From a virus: a stretch of DNA of 64,000 nt. The notes under the pieces are model-generated. The model ran no database searches, was not told where the DNA came from, and saw only the letters and a list, made by a program, of their open reading frames with translations. The position numbers and the translations under genes are program-made. Location: UHGV virus genome UHGV-1362809. The stretch is one strand, 5' to 3'. Positions 11,440 to 64,000 of this stretch are shown here, piece after piece; the first letter of the stretch is position 1; the number at the start of each line of letters is the position of its first letter.

Positions 11440-11634
11440 ATGTATAAAGTGTTAGACCGTCTTATGTATAGTGTGGTCGGTAGAGGAGTATCTCAATCTA
11501 CTTGGGATAAAATGAGTTTACGAGATAAACAATCTTATCTAAGGAAGTATCGTAATTCCAAGTATAAACCCAAATATAAAAATTGGGTAATTCGTCCTTT
11601 TGCTGATATGTATAAATTTATTGAAAGTGTGTAA
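11440..11634 (+). CDS. Hypothetical small basic protein
   Basis: RBS gggaggag upstream of ATG 11440. Confidence 0.4.
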   Translation: MYKVLDRLMYSVVGRGVSQSTWDKMSLRDKQSYLRKYRNSKYKPKYKNWVIRPFADMYKFIESV

Positions 11635-45159: not shown

Positions 45160-45165
45160 CAAATT

Positions 45166-45193
45166 CGGGTGTGCAGGGAAACTTGCGCACCCG
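45166..45193 (+). terminator. Terminator hairpin cgggtgtgca/tgcgcacccg
   Basis: 10-bp stem (one G-U) after the tube gene, followed by the AT-rich motif. Confidence 0.45.
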
Positions 45194-45210
45194 ATAATTT
45201 TTATATATAA
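45194..45210 (+). promoter_or_regulatory. Late-promoter-like motif ataatttttatatataa
   Basis: Copy of the conserved motif 23 nt upstream of gene 45233. Confidence 0.4.
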
Positions 45211-45232: not shown

Positions 45233-45706
45233 ATGCCTATTAATGTAGTAGACGGGTTTAATATATCAAGTGCGTTACCCTTAGACTTGCGTACTGTGTA
45301 CAATACAGTGGAGGAAGCACTTGTAAGCATACACGAATACCAAAGATACGATGGACTTACTGTTTGGATTAAATCCTTACAAAAGTCCTACAGATTTGTT
45401 GGTGGTACGGATAATTCAAATTTCCAGGAAGTAAAAACAGGTAGTACTGGTGGCGCAGGTGTAAAGTATTTTGAATATAGTTTTACAGAGCAAGATTTTG
45501 ACGAGCAGTCTAAGCTATTGAGTATAAAGTCCCCCCAACATGGTTTAGGAAATAAAATTATAGTTGGATACGTACAAAAAAATATTGACTCTAAGTGGTG
45601 TGACGTTTTGTATGATTACTGTGTACAGGACGGAAATATCATATTAGATTTGGGTATCCCTTCAAGCGGAAGGGTACTATTATTTTCAGTTGAAGGAGGT
45701 AACTAA
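45233..45706 (+). CDS. Hypothetical tail-associated protein
   Basis: 157-aa ORF. Confidence 0.45.
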   Translation: MPINVVDGFNISSALPLDLRTVYNTVEEALVSIHEYQRYDGLTVWIKSLQKSYRFVGGTDNSNFQEVKTGSTGGAGVKYFEYSFTEQDFDEQSKLLSIKSPQHGLGNKIIVGYVQKNIDSKWCDVLYDYCVQDGNIILDLGIPSSGRVLLFSVEGGN

Positions 45707-47574: not shown

Positions 47575-47586
47575 AAGGGATAAGAA

Positions 47587-49008: not shown

Positions 49009-49010
49009 TA

Positions 49011-50663
49011 ATGAAATTACAGGTAAATTCAAATTTTTTCGGTATTTTTAATAATAACTATATTGCCTCCAGTCAATTATTAACAAGGGATTTTAAATGT
49101 TTCCCATTAACTTGTAGTGCTGTTGGTTTTGACAAAACAAATTCTTATTTGTATAGTTATAAAAATCCTATTTTGAAGTGTTCCACGAGTATAGGCGCCC
49201 GCAGAAATTTTCCTTGCTACCTTACTGGCTATGAAAATAATGGTGTGGACTATTTAGTGTATACAACACCAGAAGAAGAAATAACTGGTAGTAATAAGTT
49301 GTCATTTTCTAATAATTTAGTGGACTGCGTCTCCACGTCACAAATTGTTCCTTTACCAAGATATAAGACGCAGCTGTATTTATACGCTGATGGAGGAGAT
49401 GCTCAAGCTGGATCTAGCTCCTACTATTCTTATGGTAATCCTAATTTTTCGGGATTTAGCGTAAGAGACAGTGACGGTCACGCCTTGTTATGGTTTAACT
49501 TTTATACCAATGATGCCTATCATTGTTCTAACTATTGCTCTTATAGAATTATATCTCAGTCTTCAGAAAGGGACATAATAGGATTGGACACACTACATAG
49601 TGGAAGATCCGCAGCTACTGGATCTTCCACTACTGGTATATCTAACATTACTATCGATGATATTATCACTAAAAATTCCAAAACTAATAGGTTTTCTATT
49701 TTTTCTGTGGATAAAGACAAAGTAGGTAACTCTTATACTATAACCACCGATACCGATTGGGATATTACTATTTCCACAGATTACACAGACCAACAACCAG
49801 TGTTAGACACTCGGTGTTCCTTATCCATTGATAATTCCGATGGTACGTTTACACTTTATCAAGTTCGTAGACTTAAATCAGATAATAAAATTCTTGGTTT
49901 ATGGAAATTAGTAGGAAATGAGCAAGAGCATACTGTACAAGGCACTTTAATTACTATCGATGTTCCTATTCCTTTTGCTATTTATGACTGTACCAATAAG
50001 AGTAATACTTATAATTACCATACAGAGTACTACAGAGAAAATAATAAATCTTTTGTAACAGTAGTAGTTTGTGCTAACACAAATATGACTACTTATAGTG
50101 AGAACGTAGGCATTTACACTTATGAAGTAGACGAAACTGCAAATACAGCCACCTTTAAGGGGTCTTATAAAAATCCCAACAACTATATTATGAGCTACTT
50201 TATGATAGCCTCAAAAACTATGCTTACTGCCTCTCCACTTGGTTATGAAATTTTGAGTTTTGATACCACCGCAGGTGTTTGGAAAAAGACGGCTGGTAAA
50301 GATTTATCCTTAGATTGTATTGTATATGATGACGTTTCTAATGCACTATTTTATGTAGATACCTCTCATGTTGCGTACATGGATAAACTTGACTTAGCTA
50401 TGACTGCCGACTGGGGTTGGTCTAACCCCAACCAAATTTGGGAAGGCTCAGCTATAGATACTACCTTGTATATGTCTTGCGCTGACTATACAGGTAAATT
50501 AGTATCCCAAAACGTAACTTTGTACATAGAAGGAAATGCAGTGTTTACAGAGAATAATCTCAAATCAATTACTGTTTCTACTTCTGCTACTGATAAAATC
50601 TTGATTCCTGTACAAATTACTGGAGATGGTGTTATAACAGTTTCAGCAAAAGCCGCTATTTAA
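49011..50663 (+). CDS. Putative receptor-binding / tail fibre protein B (paralogous C-terminal domain)
   Basis: Shared C-terminal domain with the 47587 ORF; start at MKLQVN with GGAG RBS. Confidence 0.5.
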   Translation: MKLQVNSNFFGIFNNNYIASSQLLTRDFKCFPLTCSAVGFDKTNSYLYSYKNPILKCSTSIGARRNFPCYLTGYENNGVDYLVYTTPEEEITGSNKLSFSNNLVDCVSTSQIVPLPRYKTQLYLYADGGDAQAGSSSYYSYGNPNFSGFSVRDSDGHALLWFNFYTNDAYHCSNYCSYRIISQSSERDIIGLDTLHSGRSAATGSSTTGISNITIDDIITKNSKTNRFSIFSVDKDKVGNSYTITTDTDWDITISTDYTDQQPVLDTRCSLSIDNSDGTFTLYQVRRLKSDNKILGLWKLVGNEQEHTVQGTLITIDVPIPFAIYDCTNKSNTYNYHTEYYRENNKSFVTVVVCANTNMTTYSENVGIYTYEVDETANTATFKGSYKNPNNYIMSYFMIASKTMLTASPLGYEILSFDTTAGVWKKTAGKDLSLDCIVYDDVSNALFYVDTSHVAYMDKLDLAMTADWGWSNPNQIWEGSAIDTTLYMSCADYTGKLVSQNVTLYIEGNAVFTENNLKSITVSTSATDKILIPVQITGDGVITVSAKAAI

Positions 50664-50675
50664 TAGGAGGCTACG

Positions 50676-51281
50676 ATGGCTAAAGTTATACAAACTTTAG
50701 GAAATTCACAGGTACGGATAACCAACGCACATTCTTTGTGCGTTGGTGACAATCATACTTTTGATTCCTACAACGATCTTGGTTATAGAAAATCAGATGG
50801 TACATCAGGAGATTTTTCGGATGTTGTCTGTGTTGAATACACCAACGTAGAATATCCTAAACCGCATTACCCGACAACTTCAAATCCTAATACCTGCTTA
50901 TTTGAACAACAGCAAATAGAAGTATATAGGAAACTGTATCAGTACCAGCCAGAAGATTTTTTGGTTACTTCTGTACCAGAGCAATTCAACACCACAAGAC
51001 AAATTATGGTGCCTAATTATTCCAAGGACGTTCAACCTGACGTGAATATTTCAAGCCTTGGTGATTTTGTTATTACAGTTCCAAAACAGAGATGGTTTAG
51101 TTTGCAGTTAGAAATTTCTGAAAACTCCAATTACACAGAATTGCCTCCTGGAGTAGAACTTAAAGGTAATACCTTACAGGGAATAGTTCAACAGTCTGGT
51201 ACTTGGAAGGGAACAATAACTTCCGGGACTACGATGGTTGGGTATACAATAGTTGTACCGGAAATTTTAAGAATAGGATAG
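50676..51281 (+). CDS. Hypothetical tail-associated protein
   Basis: RBS aggagg upstream. Confidence 0.45.
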   Translation: MAKVIQTLGNSQVRITNAHSLCVGDNHTFDSYNDLGYRKSDGTSGDFSDVVCVEYTNVEYPKPHYPTTSNPNTCLFEQQQIEVYRKLYQYQPEDFLVTSVPEQFNTTRQIMVPNYSKDVQPDVNISSLGDFVITVPKQRWFSLQLEISENSNYTELPPGVELKGNTLQGIVQQSGTWKGTITSGTTMVGYTIVVPEILRIG

Positions 51282-51285
51282 TACT

Positions 51286-51861
51286 ATGATTAAATATTAT
51301 ACAAATGGTTTCGAGTTTGCGGACGAAAACTGTAGGTTAGCACAATTTCACGATCCAGCAACAGGGTTACCTTTTGAAGGGTATGAAGAAGTTGCCCAGT
51401 ACGTCGTGGATAATGTTTATCCTTCCTACCCTAATATTATTGATGAGTCGTTTGATTGGTTTAATCAGAATGAAATAGAGTGTCCTAAGGCTATTTTGAC
51501 CTACAAATTAGATGACCTTAAATCCTTAAAATATCAGGAAATAAATGACTCTAAACAAAAAGCTCAGGATATTGGGGTACTATACAAAGGCTATCACTAT
51601 CAAATGGATGCAGATGGTAAAGCAAACATTTTGGGTATTCGTATTGCAATACAAGATGGTTCCTATACGCAGTTCCCTATTGCTTTCAAAACGTATGAAA
51701 ACAAATATGTACAGTTGTCAAAAGACGAATACATAGAAATGTCCAATGCGGCTTTAAACTTCGTGTACAAATGTCTTGAACAAAAAGAGACATTGTGTGC
51801 CAAAGTAAATGCGGCTACCTCTGTTGAGGAACTTGACGTAATTAAATGGGAGTTTGAATGA
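51286..51861 (+). CDS. Hypothetical protein
   Basis: 191-aa ORF. Confidence 0.45.
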   Translation: MIKYYTNGFEFADENCRLAQFHDPATGLPFEGYEEVAQYVVDNVYPSYPNIIDESFDWFNQNEIECPKAILTYKLDDLKSLKYQEINDSKQKAQDIGVLYKGYHYQMDADGKANILGIRIAIQDGSYTQFPIAFKTYENKYVQLSKDEYIEMSNAALNFVYKCLEQKETLCAKVNAATSVEELDVIKWEFE

Positions 51862-52499
51862 TGACTTTTATTTTATCTATTTTGTGCGGGTTTTTTGAAT
51901 CCTGTTGGCGTAGAGTATTCGGTGGTAAAGACTGTAAATATCAAGTGTTTGAAATACGTGGAGTACAACACGTTATAAACTGTTTGTTTTTAGCGGCAAT
52001 TTTTACCTACAAGTTTTGGTTTTTGCCGACTTGGTGGATACTAGCACTTTCCGTAGTGTATATGACAATTATTTGGGAGATAGAATTTTGGACTCGTGCC
52101 CATGGTCCTCAGTTTGACGAAGGCAGAGACCTTAATCCTACATCTTATGCTATTAAACGTTATGAGAGACAATGGTTTTGTCATTATCTTCTAACTCCAT
52201 TGTACAACAAAATGGGTTGGACTAAATATAAGTTTAGCTATGACTTTGTGTCAATGGCAATGAGATATACTTTCCCTTGTCTGTGGTTGACTCCATTTTA
52301 TGGTTGGAATATACTATGGATAGGTGCTTTAGTTAGTCCTATTTATTCATTTTGTTGGCAGTTCAAAGAACTGGAAAATAATAGGTATGGAAGTACTCAA
52401 TTAGCTGAATACATTGTTGGGGCATTAGTTGGTTTTGGTCTAATGTTTTTACCGACAAACGGATGGTTATTAACTTATTTAAAGGTGTCAAATGTTTAA
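51858..52499 (+). CDS. Polytopic membrane protein
   Basis: At least 4 hydrophobic segments (e.g. CLFLAAIFTYKFWFLPTWWILALSVVYMTIIW, ILWIGALVSPIYSF, IVGALVGFGLMFL). Confidence 0.5.
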   Translation: MMTFILSILCGFFESCWRRVFGGKDCKYQVFEIRGVQHVINCLFLAAIFTYKFWFLPTWWILALSVVYMTIIWEIEFWTRAHGPQFDEGRDLNPTSYAIKRYERQWFCHYLLTPLYNKMGWTKYKFSYDFVSMAMRYTFPCLWLTPFYGWNILWIGALVSPIYSFCWQFKELENNRYGSTQLAEYIVGALVGFGLMFLPTNGWLLTYLKVSNV

Positions 52500-53307
52500 G
52501 GAACAAGCAATAAGTCAACGTCAATGGGATGAAATGAAACAGTCTGAAAAGAAGGCGTTTTCAAAACAGCATCCAAACTCTAAATTCGCAAAGGCTTTTC
52601 AGTTGGCAATCTACAAAACGAAAAAGTCAAAACTGTCAAAAGAAATTAGAGAATTAAAAGTAGGCCTTACAAAACGAATTTCTAAATCCCGTAAGGAACT
52701 TTTAACCAAATCTATTAAGTCTAAACAGACCAAACTCAAAAATCTAAATACTTTGATTAAAGAATTAGAAGTTGTGAATACTGTTAAGACTGCTCCTAAG
52801 TCTTCTGCTTCTACTATAAAATCCGTTCGTACAGATGCATCAAATATGTATGACTTGCTCAATGAAATAGAAACCTTAGACTCTTGGGTAAGATACTATT
52901 ATGCTGACGACACAACAAGTCAGTGGGATGACGCAAAAAAGTATGAAAAACTATTGGCTGAAAAGGAAGAACAGTTAAAGCAACTGTTAGCTAAGCCTAA
53001 AAAACAAAAACCCCTGATAAATATTTTACAGGATTTGATCCCCTTTGTTGGATTTAAGGAATCAGAGGTACAGTTCGACAAAAAACATAATAGTATGCTC
53101 GTTCGTGCCGTACAACCTCTTAATGCCTCTGAAACTCCCTATACAATTAGTGGAAACCTTGTTGGTAAAAAGAATGGTTGGGAAATAGAGGGTAAGTTCA
53201 ACCCGTATTATGAGTCTAAACTACAAAATATTGCTAAGGTGTTATCCACCTTTGGCACAAATGTTACCAACGTCAAGAAAATACATTTTGAAATCGAAGT
53301 AAAATGA
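52492..53307 (+). CDS. Protein with conserved basic N-terminal module (family member A)
   Basis: N-terminal ...QWDEMKQSEKKAFSKQHPNSKFAKA... plus K-rich coiled-coil, homologous to the N-termini of ORFs 55854, 57484, 63888. Confidence 0.55.
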   Translation: MFKEQAISQRQWDEMKQSEKKAFSKQHPNSKFAKAFQLAIYKTKKSKLSKEIRELKVGLTKRISKSRKELLTKSIKSKQTKLKNLNTLIKELEVVNTVKTAPKSSASTIKSVRTDASNMYDLLNEIETLDSWVRYYYADDTTSQWDDAKKYEKLLAEKEEQLKQLLAKPKKQKPLINILQDLIPFVGFKESEVQFDKKHNSMLVRAVQPLNASETPYTISGNLVGKKNGWEIEGKFNPYYESKLQNIAKVLSTFGTNVTNVKKIHFEIEVK

Positions 53308-54431
53308 AAGATATATCAAACAGATTTGGTATTTATGACCGACCACTTGATTTAGATAAACTTCCTTACACGCCGTCCTTATTCTCAATAAGTAGGTGGG
53401 GCGGTATTTTGGATAAGTCTACAACCAAGTGGTTTGGTTTTCCTTCTAAAAATTCTATACAAACTGTATGTACCAGACACTATGGGTTTTACAGTACTCC
53501 TTTAAAGTGCGTATTGCATCTGGTGCAGGACGGGGAGGTAGTTTTTAATTATATACAAGACCGAGCTATACAGGAATTTGACTTTACTTCCTCTGGTAAA
53601 TCTATTTTGGAAGTATACGTTCAGCCATCTAAAATTCAAAATCGACGTATGATATTGACTATACAATCTATAGCAAAACAGTACCAACAGTTTTTTAAAG
53701 CAAATGGTAGTTCTAAAACCTTATACTTTGACCTGTATATACCTCAGAATAATGCTTTTGTAAGACGTCAGACTTACGGGGTTTCAAGTTTTGAAAGTGC
53801 CTTGATTGACGTACAGCGAAATTACAAAGCCTATGAGTCTAATAAACTGCATACTTCCGCTCCGAGATTTAAAGTTATAAGTAAGGAGGCTTTTATGGAA
53901 CCAAAAAAGCTTAAAAAGAGATTTGAAAATATTGATATAGAAGATGCTAACTATATGTTGGACGACCAAGGCTATTTTACCAAGGATATACCTATAAATA
54001 CCCACCCAGTAGAACAGAGGGTAGGAACAGTTTTGAGTAGTTTAGAAACTGCCTGTTTGGTAGATACCTTTAATTACGGTGATGACGTGATACAGCGTTG
54101 TATGGACGTAGATAGGGGTAATAGAGTATTTTCACGTTATTATATCCTTAACAGGGATAAAGAGCTACAGCAAAAAATAGAATCCATGTTTCCTTGTACC
54201 TGTGTCGTAGTAGATAAGTGTATAAAGCAGTTATACACGGTTCCTGAGTACAGAAATAATGGTTATGCTAAAACCTTGTTGAAATTTTTATTTAGTACTC
54301 CTTCTATTTGTGATGCTAAAATAATACGGGCTGAACCTTTTGGTGATAAGTCGATGACTGCCGAGGACTTAAAAAGTTTATATAAGTCCTTAGCCCTTAG
54401 CTGTGGTAGGTCAGATATTCAAGTACTTTAG
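53304..54431 (+). CDS. Hypothetical protein with possible C-terminal GNAT acetyltransferase motif
   Basis: C-terminal VVVDKCIKQLYTVPEYRNNGYAKTLLKFLF resembles GNAT motif A (Q/R-x-x-G-x-G/A). Confidence 0.35.
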   Translation: MKDISNRFGIYDRPLDLDKLPYTPSLFSISRWGGILDKSTTKWFGFPSKNSIQTVCTRHYGFYSTPLKCVLHLVQDGEVVFNYIQDRAIQEFDFTSSGKSILEVYVQPSKIQNRRMILTIQSIAKQYQQFFKANGSSKTLYFDLYIPQNNAFVRRQTYGVSSFESALIDVQRNYKAYESNKLHTSAPRFKVISKEAFMEPKKLKKRFENIDIEDANYMLDDQGYFTKDIPINTHPVEQRVGTVLSSLETACLVDTFNYGDDVIQRCMDVDRGNRVFSRYYILNRDKELQQKIESMFPCTCVVVDKCIKQLYTVPEYRNNGYAKTLLKFLFSTPSICDAKIIRAEPFGDKSMTAEDLKSLYKSLALSCGRSDIQVL

Positions 54432-54532
54432 GAGGTTAGTTATGTATGGATACCCAAGTACAAAAAATGTTATATTTATTGGAAAAACAGTAAAATATCC
54501 TGATTTAAAATTTCCTAAATAGGAGGCTTTAT

Positions 54533-55786
54533 ATGGCGATAAATATTGGAAGGGGTGTCAGACAGCAGTCCTCTGTTTTGAAACCGTCCAACTACGGTAT
54601 GTCCCATATTGCAAAAGAACGATTGGTACAGTATGTTGGCATGGCAGTGCAAAAACATATAGAGGCTGTTGAAGTAGATGGTACTCCTGCTGAAATATGG
54701 ATAAAACAAACTGGTGGTAGAGTATGTAGCTGTCAACACCCACAAATAACTACTTCTAACTCTGTTGGTAGCGACACCCCTATACATATCCAGGAAGTTC
54801 AGGAACAAAATCCTTTTACTTTTAAGATAAAATCTCCTGAGGACGTTATTGACGCAGGAGAATATTACAATGAAAATAGGGAACCTGCTACAACATTAGA
54901 AACAGACGAAGGTAATTGGACAACCCAGTTTAATACTGGTGGTTCTGGTTTAACAGACCAACCTTCTAATTTGTTGGACGAGGGTGTAGCAAGTTTATTG
55001 TTTGGTGGGGATAAATCTACCTGTGGTATTTGCTTCGGTACTGGGTGGACAGATGGTTATCGACTTGTTAATGGGCAACGTGTTGTAATAGACGCTACTT
55101 TGCCTAACAACGTGTGCATGGCGTCTATAGATGTTGATACTTTACCATATTCATTTAAACTTCCAGGAGATAATAAATCCTATATAGAATGGTTAGGTGT
55201 ACAAGTACCTAGATACTTTAAAGACGCACAATTTAGTTTGTTCAACAATACAATTCCTGTGCAGGGTGTAGTGCTGATAAGACCGTCAAATACTGAAGAA
55301 TATAAACCTTTGTCGTTGTCCAATTTGTTAGACATAAAGAGTGCTTTTATGGATGTTAAGATTGTTGGACAGTTTAACAAACCGTTGCAGTTTACACATC
55401 TTAACTTGGTATATACTACTTCGGACTTTCCAAAAATAGATACACCTCCTTTTGAAAGGTCGGAGAATTATCAGTTTTTCGAGGCTCTTATGACTACCAA
55501 CTTTGAGGTTCCTGGATCTATTCCTTATGTTGACCGTGAGTCCGTAATAGGAATTGCCAAGGAAGGTTTTTTGTGGAAAGTAAGTTCGGTAAACCAAACC
55601 ATGACACACGAAAGACAAATATTCAAGTCAACTATAACCGCTCGTCTAATTCAACGAAGTGAATGTCTATACCTGCTCAATGGATTATTTAGACCAAAAA
55701 CGGTGTATAATTTTAGGGGACTTGAACGTATACAAGGACTAAGTAATTATATCGATAGGCAGTATAAAAATATGCAAGGTGTCTAA
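54533..55786 (+). CDS. Hypothetical virion-associated protein
   Basis: RBS aggagg upstream; 417 aa. Confidence 0.45.
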   Translation: MAINIGRGVRQQSSVLKPSNYGMSHIAKERLVQYVGMAVQKHIEAVEVDGTPAEIWIKQTGGRVCSCQHPQITTSNSVGSDTPIHIQEVQEQNPFTFKIKSPEDVIDAGEYYNENREPATTLETDEGNWTTQFNTGGSGLTDQPSNLLDEGVASLLFGGDKSTCGICFGTGWTDGYRLVNGQRVVIDATLPNNVCMASIDVDTLPYSFKLPGDNKSYIEWLGVQVPRYFKDAQFSLFNNTIPVQGVVLIRPSNTEEYKPLSLSNLLDIKSAFMDVKIVGQFNKPLQFTHLNLVYTTSDFPKIDTPPFERSENYQFFEALMTTNFEVPGSIPYVDRESVIGIAKEGFLWKVSSVNQTMTHERQIFKSTITARLIQRSECLYLLNGLFRPKTVYNFRGLERIQGLSNYIDRQYKNMQGV

Positions 55787-55794
55787 CTTGGTAA

Positions 55795-55818
55795 GGGTGT
55801 GGAGGTATTTCCACACCC
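55795..55818 (+). terminator. Terminator hairpin gggtgtgg/ccacaccc
   Basis: 8-bp perfect stem followed directly by the AT-rich motif. Confidence 0.45.
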
Positions 55819-55835
55819 AATAATTTTTATATATA
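55819..55835 (+). promoter_or_regulatory. Late-promoter-like motif aataatttttatatata
   Basis: Copy of the conserved motif 19 nt upstream of gene 55854. Confidence 0.4.
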
Positions 55836-55853
55836 GTCAAAATAGGTGATATT

Positions 55854-57491
55854 ATGTATATTATTGAAGCTATAACAAAACAAGGTTGGGATAAACTTAC
55901 TCCTGCTGAAAAGAAGAAATATGCTAAACAACACCCTAACTCTAACTTTTCAAGAGCTCTTAATTTATCAATTCTTAGGGTTAAAGCTAAGGAAATAAGT
56001 GGTAAAATAGCTCAGTTAAAGGTAGATATTGTTAAGTACAAGTCTAAGGCTAAAAAATTACAGCTCACTCAAAGTATAAAGTACAATACTACTCGTTTAT
56101 CTAATATAAAAGCTGAAATAGTTAGACTACAAAAATTATTAACACCTTCTAATCAAGGTACAGTAGTTAAAGTCCCTTCCAAACCAAAAGTATCCAAGGA
56201 GCCTATTACCAAAACTAAAAACTACGACAAACTACCTATGCCTGTTGAAGACGACTATATGGATAAACGGTGGAAACAGTCTAAACAAAAAATAGAAAAA
56301 TTGTATGAATTAGAAGCAGATGAAGATGCTTTACGTCGTAAACATTTAGACTGGACTAATCAGCATAAGGATGTTGATTTTACACAGTTACCAGAGTATC
56401 AGCAGTACCATCAAAAACGGGGAGATTTGTTCGAAGAGTGTATGAAATTAAAAAAGTCTTTTAAACCGTATGATAATATGCGTTATAGACAAATGAATTT
56501 TATTGCCTCTTTAGAAGACTCAAATAAACGTGTTCGTTCTAACTTGTTTAAATACTTAGATAAATGTATGACTTCACAGCCTATATCACCTAAGGAATTT
56601 AATGAAATAAAACAGCAAGTATCTCAGTCAATAGATGATTGTGGTATAGATTATTTTATTGCGTTGGTAAATACTAATGAAGACTATGGCGACTACTGGG
56701 ATTATATAGAAAAACATCCTGAAAAGCGTAGTTTGATGGTGCCTATTATGACTCTGTTTGATGAAGAGCAAGTGACAGATGATTCTGAATTTAGTACAGT
56801 ACAACAGCAAAATGAATACTTAGCTACTCTTGCTCCGACGGTACATCTTAATTCCATCAATGATAAGAGACCTATTTGTGAACAGTTTAAAGAACTTGAA
56901 TCTAAATACGTTCCGTTTAGAGTTGACGAAATAAAAACTACCAACCAAAAGTATTCTATTGCTCGTATAAATCTTAATACTTTATCCTTAAATGCCGATA
57001 GTTTTAATAATGCCAAGCTGTATGAAGACGAAACTTATGGAGAGTTCTTAAAGGGTCAAATTAAACGGGCAAATGACATACTTACAGATAACCCTGACCT
57101 ATTGTCCTCTGAACGCAGACAGGTTCTTAACAAAATAAAAGCACTTGAGGAGTCTTTAAAGTATAGATGGTTTACCTTTAGGCAACAAGGTAAATTAGAA
57201 AGTAAATACACGATTACCCACGAATATGGACATTACTTGAGTTTTATTTCAAGATGGGCTGATTCAACAGGCAATATGATACAGCAAGTTTATAATCAGG
57301 TGTACAATAGCAACCTAAAATATAAGCTGACCGAGTACAGTATGTCTAACAGGGAAGAATTTTTTGCTGAATGTTTTAATATGTATCACTACGGTGAGCC
57401 TTTACCAGACATTTGCAAAAATTTAGTGGAAACAGTTATAGAAAAAGCTAAACAAGCTTATAAGGTATTACATGGAGAGAAGTATGTTTAA
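55854..57491 (+). CDS. Family member B: conserved N-terminal module + C-terminal HExxH...E zinc metallopeptidase-like domain
   Basis: N-terminus aligns to member A over ~90 aa; C-terminal ITHEYGHYLSF ... NREEFFAECF (HExxH followed ~30 aa later by an E-x-x-A-E block). Confidence 0.55.
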   Translation: MYIIEAITKQGWDKLTPAEKKKYAKQHPNSNFSRALNLSILRVKAKEISGKIAQLKVDIVKYKSKAKKLQLTQSIKYNTTRLSNIKAEIVRLQKLLTPSNQGTVVKVPSKPKVSKEPITKTKNYDKLPMPVEDDYMDKRWKQSKQKIEKLYELEADEDALRRKHLDWTNQHKDVDFTQLPEYQQYHQKRGDLFEECMKLKKSFKPYDNMRYRQMNFIASLEDSNKRVRSNLFKYLDKCMTSQPISPKEFNEIKQQVSQSIDDCGIDYFIALVNTNEDYGDYWDYIEKHPEKRSLMVPIMTLFDEEQVTDDSEFSTVQQQNEYLATLAPTVHLNSINDKRPICEQFKELESKYVPFRVDEIKTTNQKYSIARINLNTLSLNADSFNNAKLYEDETYGEFLKGQIKRANDILTDNPDLLSSERRQVLNKIKALEESLKYRWFTFRQQGKLESKYTITHEYGHYLSFISRWADSTGNMIQQVYNQVYNSNLKYKLTEYSMSNREEFFAECFNMYHYGEPLPDICKNLVETVIEKAKQAYKVLHGEKYV

Positions 57492-58254
57492 GGAAGAAGC
57501 AAGGGGTTTAAGTGAGGACTCCTTTAAGGCTCTCACACCAACGCAACAAATCAGATACATAAAAGACCATCCTAATTCTAAGTATGCTAAAGAATCAAAA
57601 TGGTTAAGCAGAGCTAAAAGATTAAAGGCAAATAAGGCTGTTCGTAGCACACAGCATAAAGCTCCAAAAAATGTTGTCAACCTATTTATGGACGCAGTTA
57701 AAAAATCCTTTACTCAACGTCAAAAGGCGGCTAACGCAAATAAAAAAGGTGCTATAGTAGTTAAACAGCCAAGTAAATTAACGGTGCCTCCTCCTAAACA
57801 AACCCTATTAGAACAAAAAATTGCCAAGTTAGACCCTTTGTCCTTTATTAAACCAGAGGATACTAAACGACCAGCCCCTACACAGGTAGGTCTAATTACC
57901 AGACGTTATTTGAAAGCCTTGGGATTAGATGGTTCTGTTACTACTGAAAAAGGAAGGGCTTCTTTTGTTTATATTTATTTAAACAACTTATCTCCTGATG
58001 AGGAGTATGCCTTGAATAGCAAACTGCACAGAATCTTCGTGCGTGGAACATTTGATGGTATGCAGGATTGTTATATAACAAATAATTACCGTCCTGGAAT
58101 ACCACAGGTAGATTATTTGTCGCTTACTGTAAACTATACTCCAGATGTTCAAATCAAAATGAATAAATTTATTGAGTCTAAGGGTTTCAAGGTAGTAGAT
58201 ACACTGGGCAGAGAAACAATTAGAATGGCTGAAAAGTTAGGTTTTTGGAAGTAA
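57484..58254 (+). CDS. Family member C: conserved N-terminal module protein
   Basis: MFKEEARGLSEDSFKALTPTQQIRYIKDHPNSKYAKES aligns with members A/B; RBS ggagag upstream of ATG 57484. Confidence 0.5.
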   Translation: MFKEEARGLSEDSFKALTPTQQIRYIKDHPNSKYAKESKWLSRAKRLKANKAVRSTQHKAPKNVVNLFMDAVKKSFTQRQKAANANKKGAIVVKQPSKLTVPPPKQTLLEQKIAKLDPLSFIKPEDTKRPAPTQVGLITRRYLKALGLDGSVTTEKGRASFVYIYLNNLSPDEEYALNSKLHRIFVRGTFDGMQDCYITNNYRPGIPQVDYLSLTVNYTPDVQIKMNKFIESKGFKVVDTLGRETIRMAEKLGFWK

Positions 58255-58264
58255 GAGGTGTGTA

Positions 58265-59545
58265 ATGCCTGATAATAAAGGTATTCCTTGTTATCTTTGG
58301 TTTGAAGCTCAGGTACAGCCTGGAGTTGAACCATTTATAAAAATTCCTCAACGTATAAACATAATAGGGGAAGTTATAGGGGTTAATCCAAAATTCAAAG
58401 AAAGTTTTTTGAGAAAAGCTCTTAATATTTATTTTTTGAATGGTGTTATTCCCCTTGACGATTTAAACCAACATTGGATTAAAACAGAGTCCTTTGATAC
58501 TGGACTACGTCCTACTCTTAAGGTAAAAATACAAGCTAAGGATTTACTTAGTGCTGTTATAAATAGGGATTTTGCAAAACAGGGTACTGGGCTTAACATA
58601 ATTCGTCAAGCTGACTATGTGGCTAATAGTCCTACCCTGTATAATCAAATGGGTCAGCAGTCAGCTACTTTTGCTTCTACTAATGGAGTGGATAAGTATG
58701 GGTTTTTACTCAAACCCTTTATACTATCCAATACTGATGTTGACTGGCTTGTACGGTGTTTGCGTACTTGGACACCGATGCTTGAAAAGTACTATACACA
58801 AAAGAAAACTTTTATGGTATCCGTTGTAGGTGGTCCCAAAGTATATACTATCTTTAAACCTAAAAATCCAGGCGGTGATTACTATGACGGAGGTCGTATA
58901 AATATATACTTATCTAAATTTGAGTCCAAACCTAAGTGCATAAAAGATTTTACTCGTTTGCTGGTACATGAATACACGCACTTTTTGCAATATCTTTTTG
59001 TAAAAACAAATAAATCATTGGTATCAAGTTGGGCTAAATCAGCTCCTGTATCCAACCCAGTTAAATACTATAGTCGTATGTGGGAACGTGACGCTTATGC
59101 GGTGCAGTTTTTATGGGAATTTTTATCCTCCCATAATTTACCTTTAAAGGCTCTATCAAATGGTAAAATTCTTAAAGAACATTTTACTCCTGATGTTTTT
59201 AAAGCCTATTTAAAGACAAATTCCGATATTAAGTACCACCTAAGCCGTATGCCTAAACAAATGCGTTCTAAGTGGTTGAATGGGCTAATAATTGCTGCTC
59301 AAAAGTTTGTCAACGATATGCAAGTTAATGTTGTGGAAAGTAGTGTATCTGCTAATGATTATATAATGCTTAAGCAGTATCCTTTGCAGTATTCGTCTGA
59401 ACAAGTAAAATCTTCGTATACAGGTAACAAGTTAGACGATTTTACATACATGGTAAATGCGGAGTACTATCAGTACAATAATGTTCAGCCTGCGGATACT
59501 AAATTACCTGCTATTATGTCAAGAGTTAGCTTATATGTGGAGTAA
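58265..59545 (+). CDS. Putative HExxH zinc metallopeptidase-like protein
   Basis: LLVHEYTHFLQYLF followed ~30 aa later by WERDAYAVQF (E-x-D-A-x-A), the same arrangement as in ORF 55854. Confidence 0.45.
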   Translation: MPDNKGIPCYLWFEAQVQPGVEPFIKIPQRINIIGEVIGVNPKFKESFLRKALNIYFLNGVIPLDDLNQHWIKTESFDTGLRPTLKVKIQAKDLLSAVINRDFAKQGTGLNIIRQADYVANSPTLYNQMGQQSATFASTNGVDKYGFLLKPFILSNTDVDWLVRCLRTWTPMLEKYYTQKKTFMVSVVGGPKVYTIFKPKNPGGDYYDGGRINIYLSKFESKPKCIKDFTRLLVHEYTHFLQYLFVKTNKSLVSSWAKSAPVSNPVKYYSRMWERDAYAVQFLWEFLSSHNLPLKALSNGKILKEHFTPDVFKAYLKTNSDIKYHLSRMPKQMRSKWLNGLIIAAQKFVNDMQVNVVESSVSANDYIMLKQYPLQYSSEQVKSSYTGNKLDDFTYMVNAEYYQYNNVQPADTKLPAIMSRVSLYVE

Positions 59546-59550
59546 AATAT

Positions 59551-59931
59551 ATGTGGTTAGTTTGTGGAAATGAATACAGATGGGTGGATGACGATAAGTA
59601 CATATCAATTCAGCCTATTTTAAAAGAGAAGGGTATAAAATATAAGATTACTAAGTATAAACCAAAGTATGGCGAGGAAGTACTTACTAATCTACAGGAC
59701 TTACCGATTCTAGATATGCAGTATTATATTTCTAAAATCATCAAACAATACGGAATAAAAGGATTACTACAAATGATTAGAAATTCAAAAGGAACTTCAA
59801 ATGGTGTGCAAGTTTGTGTGCAAGCTAGCACCTATAAAAAGTTAAAACCCCGTTTTAAAGAAATTGAAAAGATTGAAAAGGAAATCGAGGAATCGAAAAT
59901 TGAATGCCCCGAAAATATTGAAATCGTGTAA
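59551..59931 (+). CDS. Hypothetical protein
   Basis: 126-aa ORF. Confidence 0.4.
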   Translation: MWLVCGNEYRWVDDDKYISIQPILKEKGIKYKITKYKPKYGEEVLTNLQDLPILDMQYYISKIIKQYGIKGLLQMIRNSKGTSNGVQVCVQASTYKKLKPRFKEIEKIEKEIEESKIECPENIEIV

Positions 59932-59953
59932 ATATAAACGACGGTTAAAAACT

Positions 59954-60253
59954 ATGGGAGGTACTTTTAGTTCCTCCCTTTCTGGCAATAAATACAGTAG
60001 TAAATTATCTAATACAGGTAAATATTCCGAACAGTGGGATAGGCTCAGAAAACAACGTTTAGAAATGGATAATTACACTTGTCAGAAATGTGGCTTTGAC
60101 GGACATAAATGTCCAAATAAACTGCAAGTGCATCACAAAGTACCCTTGGCAAGAGGTGGTAAAAATAAGCTTAGCAATCTTATTACTTTGTGTGTCAAAT
60201 GCCACAAGAAACAACATTACAAGGTACTAACAAAAGGACGTAAATATGTTTAA
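59954..60253 (+). CDS. Free-standing HNH endonuclease
   Basis: CQKCGF...VHHKVPLARGGKNKLSNLITLCVKCHKKQH (CxxC...HH...N...CxxCH); start at the first ATG after the upstream stop. Confidence 0.65.
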   Translation: MGGTFSSSLSGNKYSSKLSNTGKYSEQWDRLRKQRLEMDNYTCQKCGFDGHKCPNKLQVHHKVPLARGGKNKLSNLITLCVKCHKKQHYKVLTKGRKYV

Positions 60254-60434
60254 TTTAGAACCTTTCCTACATAAAGGAATCCTAAGGCATACTATCATCG
60301 AAAAAGATGGTAACAAATACCCTGTTTGGGTGTGTTCCGCAAATGCTACGGAAAAAGATAAACAGGAATTACAAAAAATTACTGACGAATACAAAAAATG
60401 TTACGGTATTCCTTTAATCGGTTTTGAAAAGTAG
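60246..60434 (+). CDS. Hypothetical small protein
   Basis: 62-aa ORF. Confidence 0.35.
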   Translation: MFNLEPFLHKGILRHTIIEKDGNKYPVWVCSANATEKDKQELQKITDEYKKCYGIPLIGFEK

Positions 60435-60444
60435 GAGAACTAAT

Positions 60445-60702
60445 ATGGACTATGAATTATACATAATTGAAAGTGCCGACCAGTTATCTGACGTACAAGT
60501 AAAAGGTACTGTTCCAGAAGGTACATTCACAGGAGGTTCTTACACGATTGTCAAAAAATTATTAGAAGCCTCCAAAGGTGACATCAGTAAGGCTATAAAG
60601 AAGTTGGTGTTTTATCGAAATAGAGCTGGTGAAAACCTAACAAACAAGACCAACATCGAAAAAGCTCTTAAGATTTTACAAAACAAGAAAGAACTTCAAT
60701 GA
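60445..60702 (+). CDS. Hypothetical protein
   Basis: RBS aggaga upstream of ATG 60445. Confidence 0.45.
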   Translation: MDYELYIIESADQLSDVQVKGTVPEGTFTGGSYTIVKKLLEASKGDISKAIKKLVFYRNRAGENLTNKTNIEKALKILQNKKELQ

Positions 60703-61265
60703 CACAGCTTGCGTTATTTGGATTAGAGCACGCAGACTCCAAAGTGGTTAGTCAACAAACATACAACTCTTGGTCGACTCTAGAAAAAATAAATTACTTA
60801 AAGCGCAAAGTAAAAGAGAACTATGCTTATATAAATGGGGTGCGCAGTGAGCAAATGAAGGCTAAAAGTAAAACGTATGCCAAATGGTGTGAGTCTATTG
60901 TCAAACCTGATTATTTTGACCCCGACAATAATCAATCCTGCTTAGAGGATGGAATACGTGCTGTAGATTCCCTGAGAGAAACCCAGTCAGAGGAAGGTGT
61001 GTCCCCTACTGAAATTGAAAATGAACACGCCTTTAATGCCCTTAGAAATCAAATAATGCTTAAAAATTACAACATATTTGACTATGATCCTAAGGTGGAC
61101 TTTACTAATATGTCTTTAGATGGATTTAAAGACTGGGGTTATAATCTAAATAAACGCAAACTCCAACAAGAGAAAAACAAAAAGAAAGCTGAAAAGTTGA
61201 GAAAAAGTTATACTGGTGGACTTTTCTCCCACTATAATATTCCTGACGAGGACGAGGAGGAGTAA
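60699..61265 (+). CDS. Hypothetical protein
   Basis: 188-aa ORF. Confidence 0.45.
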   Translation: MTQLALFGLEHADSKVVSQQTYNSWSTLEKINYLKRKVKENYAYINGVRSEQMKAKSKTYAKWCESIVKPDYFDPDNNQSCLEDGIRAVDSLRETQSEEGVSPTEIENEHAFNALRNQIMLKNYNIFDYDPKVDFTNMSLDGFKDWGYNLNKRKLQQEKNKKKAEKLRKSYTGGLFSHYNIPDEDEEE

Positions 61266-61498
61266 TGCCTACACTATCTTTACAGCCCACTATTACACTA
61301 CAACCATTCGGTATTAATGTTACCGAATTAAAGATTAATGATTTTGCCTTAATAATAAATCCTTACAAACCTCCTACACCTCCTATACCCGTTGACCAGT
61401 GGTTGTTGCAACCGAGACCAATTCCTTCTGGTGTGGATAAAACTGTGTGGGACGACATTCAGTTTTGGATGGATAATAAGTATTGGACTGAAGTATAA
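61265..61498 (+). CDS. Hypothetical Pro-rich small protein
   Basis: 77-aa ORF. Confidence 0.4.
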   Translation: MPTLSLQPTITLQPFGINVTELKINDFALIINPYKPPTPPIPVDQWLLQPRPIPSGVDKTVWDDIQFWMDNKYWTEV

Positions 61499-61524
61499 AG
61501 TACTAAGTTATAAGGAATGTTATA

Positions 61525-62397
61525 ATGCCTATTCAACATATTGAAAATAATGAAGTTGCTTCCTCTGTTAGAGAAAAACTAAACAACTCCATCGACCAAG
61601 TAAACTCACTTGGCGAGGATATTAAAAACGTAAGATATACAAACGATGTTCCTACTCCTACGGATATTGGAGGCATCAAAAAGGGAACAACGTTTGACAA
61701 CCTTACAATCGGTCAAATTTTAGATGACTTACTGTACCCTTACACGGTTCCTACGGTAGAATTAGTTACCTCTCCTGACCCCAAAGTGCTTAGGGAATAT
61801 GGTGATTCTATTTCACAGCTAACTTTGACAACGGTAATCTCTAAAGGCTCTTCTTCTAACCTAACGGCTACATTTAAACGAGGAGAAGAAGTAATTGGAA
61901 CCTTACCGACCTCTGGTTTTAATGTTACTTTTACATACAAGCCTAATCCTCCTCTTAATGAAGACGCTACTTTTACAGTAGAACTATCTGATGAAAAATC
62001 GACCGCAGTATCTAAAGAAGTATTTTATGACTTTGCGTATCCTTATTATTGTGGTATTTCAAATACAGATAGTGTGGATGAAGTTACAATTAAAGCGTCC
62101 ACAAAGGTGCTGCAATTAAAGGATAACGTAAATCCTCGTTTTACTTGTGTCAACGCCCACCCGTTTTTTGCATTTCCTCCTGATTGGGGCAATGTAATTG
62201 CTATCTATGACACCAACAAATTCAACATCACAGATAGTTTTAATCAGTCTAAAGTATCTATTACGACCAATGATGGTAGAACTACAGAGTATAATTGTTA
62301 TACCCTAAAAACTGCTACAACAATAAATGACTACACAATATATGCTACGTTCAAACCAGAGGGAGTGTTGTCGTGCGTAAAAGCTGTACCTATTTAA
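61525..62397 (+). CDS. Hypothetical protein
   Basis: RBS aaggaa upstream. Confidence 0.45.
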   Translation: MPIQHIENNEVASSVREKLNNSIDQVNSLGEDIKNVRYTNDVPTPTDIGGIKKGTTFDNLTIGQILDDLLYPYTVPTVELVTSPDPKVLREYGDSISQLTLTTVISKGSSSNLTATFKRGEEVIGTLPTSGFNVTFTYKPNPPLNEDATFTVELSDEKSTAVSKEVFYDFAYPYYCGISNTDSVDEVTIKASTKVLQLKDNVNPRFTCVNAHPFFAFPPDWGNVIAIYDTNKFNITDSFNQSKVSITTNDGRTTEYNCYTLKTATTINDYTIYATFKPEGVLSCVKAVPI

Positions 62398-62624
62398 AAA
62401 ATGTTTTGATTGGAATAGACCAACTGGTTAATACTTTACTTGGTGGCTATCCTGACGAAACAATGTCTGCAAGGGCGTATCGTCTTGAATATAATGGCAA
62501 ACTAATAGGTAAAACACTCAGACCTATTATTGACTGTATAATGTTCTGGGACGATAATCATTGTAAAGAATCATACGAAAGTGAAGTACTCAAAAAACAA
62601 CTTCCTAAGGACTACGACGTTTAA
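62373..62624 (+). CDS. Hypothetical protein
   Basis: 83-aa ORF. Confidence 0.4.
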   Translation: MRKSCTYLKNVLIGIDQLVNTLLGGYPDETMSARAYRLEYNGKLIGKTLRPIIDCIMFWDDNHCKESYESEVLKKQLPKDYDV

Positions 62625-62626
62625 GG

Positions 62627-62655
62627 TTGACATCTAATATAAAATATGTTAGTAT
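62627..62655 (+). promoter_or_regulatory. Sigma70-like promoter TTGACA-17-TAGTAT followed by a structured ~90-nt leader
   Basis: Exact -35 at 62627-62632, TAGTAT at 62650-62655; leader has hairpin cagtaag/cttactg (62665-62705) and palindrome aagggttataaccctt (62715-62730). Confidence 0.45.
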
Positions 62656-62752
62656 GGTAATAATCAGTAAGGTATGTTTATACTCTACTTATAGGTATCT
62701 TACTGTTTAAGCTGAAGGGTTATAACCCTTAAACTATTAAAGGAGAATTAGA

Positions 62753-63781
62753 ATGCTTACGGAACAAAATAAAGACTTATATATTAAAATTATGGCTAAT
62801 CCAAAACCCATAGTGGATAAGTTTAGTTTATATAGTGCCAGAGACCTATGCTGCTATAGTGTATCCTGGCTTGGCTATTACAATGTATTGTGGAAAAAAG
62901 GTATCAAACTTATTTCCGTATTTCCTAATAGTCAATACAAAGTTAGAGCATTGAAGATTACTGGGGAGTCTATTCCTATCAGTATGAAAGATTGGGAAAA
63001 AATTAAAAGACAGTTTAAGAAATACCCTACTAATGGTATTAGTGTTAAAGAGAGAATTAAAATGTACTATGAGTATGTAGTAGAATGTAGTTCCTTTAAT
63101 AGGATTAAAAGTCATTTTAATAATAAGAAGGTCTGTATGTTATCCGCTTTTAGACAGGAGGACGAGGAAGGAAATCATATTAGTCTAAAAGAAAATTTAA
63201 GGAGAACGAAAAGGTTAAAGGATAAATTAAAATTTTTAGCTAAATCCTTTAATTGGAGATACTTTGAAGTAGAAGGTTGTTATTTAGAACAGGGTCAAAC
63301 TATTCCTTCTATTGAGAAATCCTTTTTTGTTGTAGCAGATGATAATGATGTGGATTTTAATAAAATAATGATTTCATTAGGAAAGGCTTTTAATCAAGAT
63401 AGTATTTTATTGAAGTCTAAAAAAGATAATGCCTATTATGTTTCTACTAATCAAAAGTCTGATAAAATATCGGGAGTCAAACTTGGTAGATTCGTACCAA
63501 ATGTTATAGGAGAATTTTATTCTAAGCTAAGAGGCAAACCTTTCATCTTTAAGTATTCTAAACCTCATCATTATTTTAAAAATGAAAAAGGAATAAAAAT
63601 AAATAAAATATTGGGCAAACCTAATGCTAATAAATATACTTATTTAGGTATTCCTAACATATATAAACAAGGGAATAAATTTTTAGTTAAGAAATATATA
63701 AAGGGAAAATTATATAAGGAACTTTTTGATACATTACCAGAGGCTAAAACATTTTTAAATAGTCTAAAAAGATTTAGCTAA
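62753..63781 (+). CDS. Hypothetical basic protein
   Basis: RBS aaaggag upstream; 342 aa, Lys-rich. Confidence 0.5.
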   Translation: MLTEQNKDLYIKIMANPKPIVDKFSLYSARDLCCYSVSWLGYYNVLWKKGIKLISVFPNSQYKVRALKITGESIPISMKDWEKIKRQFKKYPTNGISVKERIKMYYEYVVECSSFNRIKSHFNNKKVCMLSAFRQEDEEGNHISLKENLRRTKRLKDKLKFLAKSFNWRYFEVEGCYLEQGQTIPSIEKSFFVVADDNDVDFNKIMISLGKAFNQDSILLKSKKDNAYYVSTNQKSDKISGVKLGRFVPNVIGEFYSKLRGKPFIFKYSKPHHYFKNEKGIKINKILGKPNANKYTYLGIPNIYKQGNKFLVKKYIKGKLYKELFDTLPEAKTFLNSLKRFS

Positions 63782-63797
63782 ATAGTAAAAGGTGCAA

Positions 63798-63832
63798 GGG
63801 TGTTGGGATTTACCCAACACCCTATTTTTTTT
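63798..63832 (+). terminator. Rho-independent terminator gggtgttggg/cccaacaccc plus T8
   Basis: 10-bp perfect stem, 5-nt loop, tatttttttt. Confidence 0.6.
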
Positions 63833-63835
63833 GTC

Positions 63836-63852
63836 AATAATTTTAATATATG
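63836..63852 (+). promoter_or_regulatory. Late-promoter-like motif aataattttaatatatgg
   Basis: Copy of the conserved motif 36 nt upstream of gene 63888. Confidence 0.35.
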
Positions 63853-63887
63853 GTTGCAACCCAAATATATGAAAGAGGTAACAAAAT

Positions 63888-64000
63888 GAAATTTTTAGAT
63901 ATTGTTTTGGCGATGAAAGTTCCAGGCAAAGTCACGAAAAAACAGTGGGTTAAGTTGAGTGACAGCGTTAAAAGAGCTTACGTCAAACTACACCCCACTT
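63888..64000 (+). CDS. Family member D (partial, 5' end): conserved N-terminal module protein
   Basis: KVTKKQWVKLSDSVKRAYVKLHPT matches the QW....K.AF.KQHP module; runs off the window end. Confidence 0.45.

Follow-up and report, generated by a model that had tools for sequence, protein, structure and literature searches.

A recurrent HPNSKY module on accessory proteins of jumbo myoviruses and its possible role as a docking tag

The capsid-targeting sequence of phage T4 comprises about 10 residues, is strictly N-terminal and is removed by the prohead protease at (L/I)-x-E; the T4 proteins IPI-III and Alt are packaged and injected with the DNA. In contractile injection systems of the PVC/AFP type, i.e., phage-derived particles without genomes, payload genes are located 3' of the fibre end of the tail operon, and a largely disordered N-terminal leader stands ahead of diverse toxic domains. 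Jumbo phages possess many orphan genes, and the way in which their particles are supplied with enzymes that serve the first minutes of infection is poorly known. The present study deals with a protein module of about 30 residues, termed HPNSKY, that is encoded five times in a 64,000-nucleotide (nt) stretch of the virus genome UHGV-1362809. This stretch (the window) corresponds to about positions 32,001–96,000 of the 237,166-bp JGI metagenome contig Ga0495776_003993 (sample 3300045988; source-contig locus L001). The module is real, modular, present in multiple copies per genome, virtually restricted to phages and often encoded beside structural genes. Its function is tentatively taken to be that of a docking tag and, in case of the cassette at 52–64 kb of the window, of a virion-loading tag (probability of about 0.4); we infer docking as such, and the loading of proteins into virions for co-injection is speculative.

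According to Iyer et al. 2017 (PMC5512222), polyvalent proteins combine 2–15 effector domains in one large polypeptide, with LPDs, MPTase and RelA/SpoT as hallmarks, and are predicted to be packaged and injected. The same paper describes a conserved virion-associated N-terminal part with swappable effector domains for MuF polymorphic toxins and polyvalent proteins, and notes that genes for Alt-family ADP-ribosyltransferases adjoin baseplate genes, as fits proteins that are made late and packaged (PMC5512222). The window cassette resembles each of these systems in part. With T4 IPI-III and Alt it shares a short N-terminal element common to otherwise unrelated, presumably late-made proteins, and its position past the tail-fibre genes recalls that of the Alt-family genes. 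However, the module of ~30 residues is predicted to fold, occurs also internally, C-terminally and in tandem, and has no sequence similarity to the T4 targeting sequence; it is thus not an amphipathic peptide of ~10 residues confined to the extreme N-terminus. The window proteins differ from MuF toxins in lacking a Phage_Mu_F or portal domain (Pfam scans), and from polyvalent proteins in their size of 256–545 amino acids (aa) with at most one recognisable domain, while their relative P0075 does qualify as polyvalent (LPD1, HNH, RelA/SpoT). Nor does the module belong to the LPD families of Pfam. The leaders of PVC/AFP systems and the MIX motif of type VI secretion likewise precede diverse C-termini, the former past tail-fibre genes as in the window; these elements are unrelated in sequence to the module, and the PVC/AFP leaders differ further by their disorder.

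Module proteins of the window and their predicted fold

Pairwise BLASTP and hidden Markov model (HMM) comparison demonstrated that four open reading frames (ORFs; 52492, 55854, 57484 and 63886) share an N-terminal module, as claimed by an earlier note on the window. The start of the fourth, there placed at 63888, was corrected to the ATG at 63886 upon reading of the sequence. The module proteins and the gene that precedes the cassette are the following.

51286–51861: tail-fibre-related ORF (match to tail-fibre PHROGs, E 1.6e-12)
52492–53307, plus strand: module protein 1 (271 aa), core W12–A35 at nt 52525–52596
52582–52785, plus strand: Lys-rich long helix of module protein 1 (residues 31–98)
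55854–57491, plus strand: module protein 2 (545 aa), core W12–R34 at nt 55887–55955, basic helix to about residue 96
57219–57377, plus strand: C-terminal peptidase motifs HEYGH...EEFFAECF of module protein 2
57484–58254, plus strand: module protein 3 (256 aa; alternative ATG at 57472), core F14–K37 at nt 57523–57594
63886–64000, plus strand: 5' end (38 codons) of module protein 4, core from W21 (nt 63946), HMM E 1.6e-15
11440–12127, plus strand: split fifth member, module ORF 11440–11634 (64 aa), core W22–K45 at nt 11503–11574

ORFs 52492 and 55854 align at 37 % identity over 110 aa (E 4e-19), and ORF 57484 matches them at E 4e-5 and E 5e-4, respectively. A 45-position HMM of the four copies, run against 1,239 six-frame ORFs of the window, retrieved these four and a fifth (E 1.8e-4), with the next best match at E 0.45. 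The common core has the pattern [W/F]xx[L/M](S/T)xx(E/Q)(K/R)(K/R)xY(I/L/V)(K/R)x(H/Y)PxS(K/R)(Y/F)(A/G)(K/R). The proposed HPNSKY family is defined by [WF]xx[LM]...(K/R)xY(I/L/V)xx(H/Y)PxS(K/R)(Y/F) together with a profile match at E ≤ 1e-3 library-wide; all five window members belong to it, scoring 50–72 bits against the family HMM. A module length of ~90 aa, as originally described, holds for ORFs 52492 and 55854, where similarity extends over ~90–110 aa and includes a Lys-rich helix, but the family-wide core measures only ~30 aa.

Past the module, the C-termini of the window proteins are unrelated to one another. That of module protein 1 is alpha/beta and without match in Pfam and PHROG scans. 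Module protein 3 continues with a basic tail and a C-terminal domain without assigned function; its orthologues are P0001 and P0004, while many relatives share the first ~70 aa only. The full product of module gene 4 has 545 aa on the source contig (L001 11134–12771; translation MKFLDIVLAMKVPGKVTKKQWVKLSDSVKRAYVKLHPTSIFAELY...) and an orthologue in P0034. Recent gene conversion among the window paralogues was rejected, because their DNA identity is not elevated (third-position identity 0.27–0.48).

The C-terminus of ORF 55854 is, by sequence, a predicted anthrax-lethal-factor-like zinc metallopeptidase, in agreement with the metallopeptidase domain noted earlier for one member. It resembles Pfam ATLF and lethal factor in an HExxH zinc site with a glutamate ~45 residues downstream in an EFFAE motif, HEYGH occupying residues 456–460 and EEFFAE residues 501–506. 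H456, E457, H460 and E502-F503-F504-A505-E506 are invariant in the orthologues P0014 and P0019, whereas Y458 and E501 vary. The match to Pfam ATLF (E 2.8e-4, 21.1 bits) stays below the gathering cut-off of 27.4, and a profile of the three orthologues matches the lethal factor structure 2l0r in PDB at E 3.8e-4. In contrast to anthrax lethal factor, the other domains of that toxin are absent from ORF 55854.

The fifth member, detected at E 8.4e-20 by the family profile and at 1.8e-4 by the window-only one, has a module ORF that stops at TAA 11632–11634 and a conserved C-terminal domain that continues in the +1 frame (ORF 11600–12127), while the relatives P0036 (223 aa) and P0129 (210 aa) have both parts in a single ORF. 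The junction reads ...FIESV* / KLTLAPKYRWRVDDTH..., with GTG-T-AAG as candidate +1 frameshift spot; the split could reflect an assembly or sequencing error, a mutation (pseudogene) or a +1 frameshift. No claim is made for the GNAT-like look of ORF 11600–12127 and of ORF 53304, which is seen by eye or at no better than E 0.013. The 188-aa ORF 60699–61265 matches marginally (E 0.013) the first module half only (VSQQTYNSWSTLEKINYLKR), lacks HPNSKY and is possibly a degenerate relative.

Structure prediction, proposed in the earlier note, modelled the module as three short helices followed by a basic tail (predicted local distance difference test, pLDDT, >90). With family alignments as input, AlphaFold2 places helices at residues 9–14, 17–26 and 31–98 of ORF 52492 (pLDDT 95–97) and at residues 11–15, 19–28 and 33–57 of ORF 57484 (pLDDT 88–95 for residues 11–50). 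The module itself is modelled with a pLDDT of 92–97 in these two different paralogues. In these models helix 1 would carry the W..L signature, followed by an (S/T)xxE capping box, helix 2 would end with K.Y(I/L)K.H, and a P-N-S turn would lead into helix 3 starting from K(Y/F)AK. The C-terminal domains of both proteins yielded low-confidence models, and Foldseek searches of the two models against PDB and BFVD returned nothing at E ≤ 0.001. The third helix spans ~70 Lys-rich residues in ORF 52492 (and, judged by similarity, ORF 55854) and gives way to a basic, low-complexity tail in other members. Ahead of the motif, many N-terminal members share a short leader (MKIFISVSAGVT, MK.LDRLEVLAG...(V/I)EE(A/S)RG or MRHAIV); (V/I)-E-E-(A/S)-R-G directly precedes the motif in many relatives, and ORF 55854 starts with MYIIE-A.

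Receptor-binding proteins usually combine N-terminal anchors with swappable distal domains. The window cassette lies 3' of the tail-fibre genes, a location supported by the match of ORF 51286, and the ~70-residue helix of ORFs 52492 and 55854 would suit a stalk. Accordingly, one may think of an external decoration or fibre, with the module plugged into the capsid or tail surface and the C-terminal domain outside. This is highly improbable, however: the C-termini are intracellular-type enzymes or small domains rather than beta-helix or lectin folds, most members have disordered basic linkers in place of a stalk, and some are encoded within replication modules.

Family, distribution and genomic context

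Profile HMM searching, suggested earlier as a check, was strongly positive: among 1.84 billion cluster representatives, the window-copy profile retrieved 192 proteins at E ≤ 1e-3, 14 of them at E ≤ 1e-10. The 151 sequences analysed (relatives designated by P, loci by L numbers) comprise the best 150 of these 192 matches plus P0001. The strict motif is present in 122 of the 151, with 143 copies in total; 102 copies start within 45 residues of the N-terminus, 35 are internal and 6 C-terminal, and 17 proteins carry two to three copies. Outside the module, most protein pairs show no similarity, and a Pfam family is absent for most of the fused partner domains. Recognisable partners are a topoisomerase IB in P0067, a S-adenosylmethionine (SAM)-lyase-family domain in P0097 and, in the 2,530-aa polyvalent protein P0075, zinc ribbons next to the LPD1, HNH and RelA/SpoT domains, with three internal module copies.

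As an alternative, the module with its basic tail might bind phage or host DNA and thereby concentrate enzymes on the replicating or incoming genome, without virion loading. Besides the topoisomerase IB and SAM-lyase-family fusions, a DG.HR-type (ParB-like) motif recognised by eye in P0008, the K/A/P-rich, histone H1-like tails past the motif in P0011 and P0049, and the adjacency of members to SNF2, PolA and DnaB genes (and of the fifth window member to topoisomerase II genes) agree with such a tether. So does the positive net charge past the motif, which averages +0.13 per residue over the following 45 residues versus +0.06 for whole proteins of the family. Nevertheless, this explanation is unlikely, though it deserves serious weight: the conserved core is not especially basic, no similarity to known DNA-binding families was found in Pfam or PDB, many partner domains are peptidase-like or unknown and have no DNA link, and a tether does not predict how strongly the module genes are associated with head and tail gene clusters (see below). 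Specifically, small DNA-binding domains (HMG box, SAP/HeH, helix-turn-helix) were found neither in the Pfam matches of 130 members and of module-only queries nor by PDB sequence and Foldseek searches.

The profile also retrieved ~8 bacterial YfiO proteins with tetratricopeptide repeats (TPR) of the type YLKKYPNGKY. Those TPR/YfiO proteins as well as caspase, FGE-sulfatase and SLH proteins among the profile matches were set aside, as only this half matches. The likeness is to the BamD/YbgF-type TPR hairpin, in which hydrophobic-x-K-x-(H/Y)-P-x-(S/G)-K-Y-x-x-x-A spans a helix-turn-helix, comparable to the second motif half Y(I/L)K.HPNSKYA. Together with the occurrence of copies at any position and in tandem, as for interaction repeats, it brings to mind a general adaptor that recruits the fused domains to a hub outside the virion, such as a chaperone, protease, polymerase or membrane complex of the host or the phage. 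P0103 even matches Pfam YfiO at E 0.003 and bears the JGI pipeline name BamD, a label due to this local resemblance. But P0103 reaches 17.7 bits where the cut-off is 25, no match was obtained for other canonical members, and the resemblance covers ~15 residues. Moreover, the module is a single unit rather than a hairpin array above the family threshold, it is carried by phage proteins rather than periplasmic lipoproteins, and the TPR proteins lack the W..L first helix and the basic tail. Restriction to one jumbo-phage group argues for a phage-encoded partner over a conserved host one, and synteny with structural genes would be left unexplained, making such an adaptor rather unlikely.

The polar residues of H-P-N-S-K-Y are near-invariant across more than 100 divergent proteins, which argues that they are selected for making a specific contact. 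It is therefore very unlikely that the motif is just a stable helical cap at the N-terminus, lacking a common partner and spread by recombination, even though the core is very short, the first half W..L(S/T)P.E(K/R) follows a widespread helix-capping pattern also present in unrelated repeats (P0037, P0038), and weak DUF1289 and OmdA matches occur. The unelevated DNA identity of the window paralogues (see above) also speaks against it.

The module has no Pfam, annotated-PHROG or PDB counterpart, in line with its earlier description as an unrecognised family. Pfam gave no match whatsoever for the N-terminal regions of the window proteins and none above noise for module-only queries or canonical short members (a weak DUF5535 match, E 0.05, concerns one paralogue). 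PDB sequence and profile searches gave nothing for the module, and those PHROGs that match members carry no annotated function. Literature searches on motif strings and DUF names gave nothing usable, and the sections consulted of two comparative papers on jumbo phages and polyvalent proteins (PMC7824862, PMC5512222) do not describe the module. Thus, the module, its breadth and its restriction to a jumbo-phage clade appear to be undescribed, while a shared tag on swappable effectors is known as a principle.

The window phage is a jumbo myovirus. Its major head protein shares 35–39 % identity with homologues of phiRSL1, PaBG, BcepSauron, 'Lupandier'-type phages of Erwinia/Dickeya and Rhizobium jumbo phages, and further structural genes are recognisable.

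37223–37927: head structural protein
37927–39021: major head protein
42005–44602: tail sheath
44614–45159: tail tube

No nucleotide-level relative of the region was found among 50,697 phage records (megablast), nor any tblastn match of ORF 55854 therein. Searches with the window-only alignment found no related locus among viral and metagenome contigs, and a word-indexed protein search with it returned a single fragment, P0001; a scan of metagenome contigs for K[QD]HPNS[KN][FY] gave at least 600 pattern matches, with no confirmed relative among the matches listed. IMG/VR contributed 25 confirmed loci, mostly on contigs of 130–295 kb. A scan for KxHPNSKYA in 185,579 species of bacteria and archaea, with one genome per species, yielded 11 stretches, of which two were confirmed; both reside on one 184.6-kb contig of a 'Clostridiaceae' metagenome-assembled genome with at least four module ORFs. 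Among cultured phages, tblastn located the motif solely in jumbo phages of the window's capsid clade, as follows.

BcepSauron and BcepSaruman gp075: three module copies
BCSR5, QRE00245: module carrier
Rhizobium RHph_N46-type, QXV73834: module carrier
Phage NCTB, BN7874_233 (NCTB_233): module carrier
Erwinia phages Yoloswag and pEa_SNUABM_5: module carriers

Module genes tend to cluster: three lie within 5 kb in L012, four ORFs each within 12 kb in L017 and L027, three each in L033 and L014 and two adjacent ones in L005, and L011 likewise holds a cluster of 2–4. Their synteny with structural genes is recurrent. A module gene is located directly 3' of the tail tube gene in BcepSauron (gp075) and L038. 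In L031/L032 such a gene stands between those for capsid and sheath, and in L027 one precedes the capsid genes by ~2 kb. Module genes further lie past the baseplate and fibre genes in RHph_N46 and past the tail-fibre-related ORF 51286–51861 in the window. BcepSauron gp075 was considered as a homologue of the window ORF at the same post-tube position, but the two are not homologous; the prohead protease of BcepSauron has no detectable homologue in the window.

A fusion of the motif to the glycosyltransferase of Yoloswag was rejected, as the motif lies in another frame and represents the true N-terminus of the mis-started downstream gp144. In Yoloswag NC_047815 (L006 4971–5972), gp144 is annotated to start at locus position 5238, while the module and a typical leader MLISLSQNQDWWNSLTRAEQERYLKRHPRSKY are encoded in frame upstream, where they overlap the glycosyltransferase gene at its annotated end; an error in one of the two annotations is probable.

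Transcription signals and neighbouring genes

The promoter-like motif AATTTT[TA]ATATAT, reported earlier ahead of two module genes, was indeed located at 55822 (ORF 55854) and 63839 (ORF 63886). It follows, within 2–16 nt, each of the three terminator hairpins that are strongest in the region from 44.1 to 64 kb.

45165–45208, plus strand: terminator hairpin (45165–45194) and motif at 45196, heading the tail/fibre unit
55795–55834, plus strand: terminator hairpin (55795–55818) and promoter-like motif AATTTTTATATAT (55822–55834), upstream of ORF 55854
63797–63851, plus strand: terminator hairpin (63797–63823) and promoter-like motif AATTTTAATATAT (63839–63851), upstream of ORF 63886

The motif occurs 9 times versus 1.7 expected, a count reached in 0 of 100 shuffles; matches of the sigma-70 type are not enriched in the same region (72 versus 75 expected). 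Three transcription units are thereby delimited: unit 1 (45233–55786) comprises the tail and fibre genes plus, at its end, ORFs 52492, 53304 and 54533, unit 2 (55854–63781) opens with ORFs 55854 and 57484, and unit 3 starts at 63886. Since they share this promoter-like punctuation, the four module genes are probably co-regulated with the tail genes, presumably late. A similar AATAATTTTTTATATAA motif stands upstream of two module genes in relatives, the gene 4 orthologue in L011 and a different one in L012. At the scale of the window, promoters of the TTGACA-N17-TATAAT type occur in intergenic regions of 1–23000 (e.g., near 100, 7700, 9700, 10370 and 22900), while the structural half (35000–64000) has terminator hairpins followed by ATAATTTT[TA]ATATA instead; this contrast suggests an early/late division.

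Among the neighbours of the module genes, the 213-aa protein encoded at 51858–52499, between the tail-fibre-related gene and module gene 1 (which it overlaps by 8 nt), looks hydrophobic and possibly multi-pass by eye and is without family match in Pfam and PHROG scans. The Cys-rich protein of 417 aa (CSC...CGIC; 54533–55786) sits between module genes and belongs to phrog_21298 of unknown function. Its homologues adjoin a module gene in L015 and are separated from module genes by ~7 kb in L005, and the protein may be a functional partner. Directly 3' of module protein 3, a second HExxH protein (58265–59545, LVHEYTHFLQY) lacks the module and gave no match in Pfam and PHROG scans. Homologues of the HNH endonuclease at 59864–60253 occur within ~10 kb of module genes in nine other loci (L005, L008, L011, L016, L017, L023, L029, L030, L033), which might reflect homing-endonuclease-driven shuffling of the cassette or the mere abundance of HNH genes in jumbo phages. 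Immediately 5' of module gene 4, the product of 62753–63781 matches Pfam S-AdoMet_lyase at residues 129–240 (E 2.2e-15) behind an N-terminal extension of ~120 aa; in the metagenomic relative P0097, this same domain is fused to two module copies.

Further upstream, both topoisomerase II subunits (GyrB-like, 12120–15281; GyrA/ParC-like, 15271–17763) are interrupted by inteins (Pfam Intein_splicing at residues 520–923 and 91–426, respectively), and both inserts match HNH homing-endonuclease families (an HNH PHROG in both cases, for the GyrB-like subunit also Pfam HNH_3). An ATPase gene (209–1411, phrog_1297) is followed by a gene (1454–3202) for a DUF2201_N metallopeptidase domain with a VWA-like DUF2201 domain, which additionally matches an HNH PHROG. 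This pair may be a counterpart of the MoxR-vWA chaperone pair with N-terminal peptidase that Iyer et al. 2021 (PMC7824862) describe for group 2.2 jumbo phages.

A docking function of the module and its implications

In the favoured reading, the module would be a small autonomous helical unit that docks unrelated accessory proteins onto one common, phage-specific partner. The docked cargo would be the lethal-factor-like peptidase in the window and topoisomerase IB, the SAM-lyase-family domain and RelA/SpoT-HNH polyvalent proteins elsewhere. In case of the 52–64 kb genes, the likeliest partner would belong to the particle under assembly, the basic tail resting on packaged DNA, and the tagged proteins may be loaded into virions and delivered with the genome. 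Virion loading is favoured because of the late-type regulation, the recurrent synteny with structural genes and the occurrence of module copies in a polyvalent protein. From the likeness to T4 and polymorphic effectors drawn in the earlier note, the shared tag on swappable effectors with unrelated C-termini is retained, while simple targeting of the T4 type is not.

Several observations weigh against loading by means of such a tag. Internal or C-terminal copies account for 41 of 143, and 17 proteins have more than one; these positions and repeats misfit a cleaved N-terminal signal and leave a simple T4-type peptide unsupported. Y3 gp145, orthologue of Yoloswag gp144 and NCTB_233, lacks the module, which is therefore dispensable there. 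P0072 and P0033 sit among SNF2, PolA and DnaB genes, and the fifth window member lies in the part with sigma-70 promoters, adjoining the topoisomerase II genes. Literature searches for virion proteomes or processing of carrier phages gave nothing usable, and the fold searches (Foldseek, PDB and BFVD) were uninformative.

In its strongest form, the docking proposal holds that the HPNSKY module is a sufficient and transferable cargo-loading tag of a large jumbo-myovirus clade, such that any protein fused to it docks to a virion component or the packaged chromosome and is delivered to the next host; this form is doubtful, if by no means far-fetched. If true, the multi-gene clusters would represent a set of anti-host and anti-defence enzymes, made in advance and diversifying rapidly, and packaging would differ in kind from that by the T4 targeting sequence, by MuF fusions or by the phiKZ inner body. 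A tag sufficient for loading would also offer a tool to package foreign proteins into large phage particles. With well over 100 clusters and several genes per genome, the tag would provide computational access to candidates for injected effectors and anti-defence factors. Even with DNA or a non-virion hub as partner, the module would constitute a new, widespread and phage-restricted domain family that has been missed or mislabelled ('BamD') in databases.

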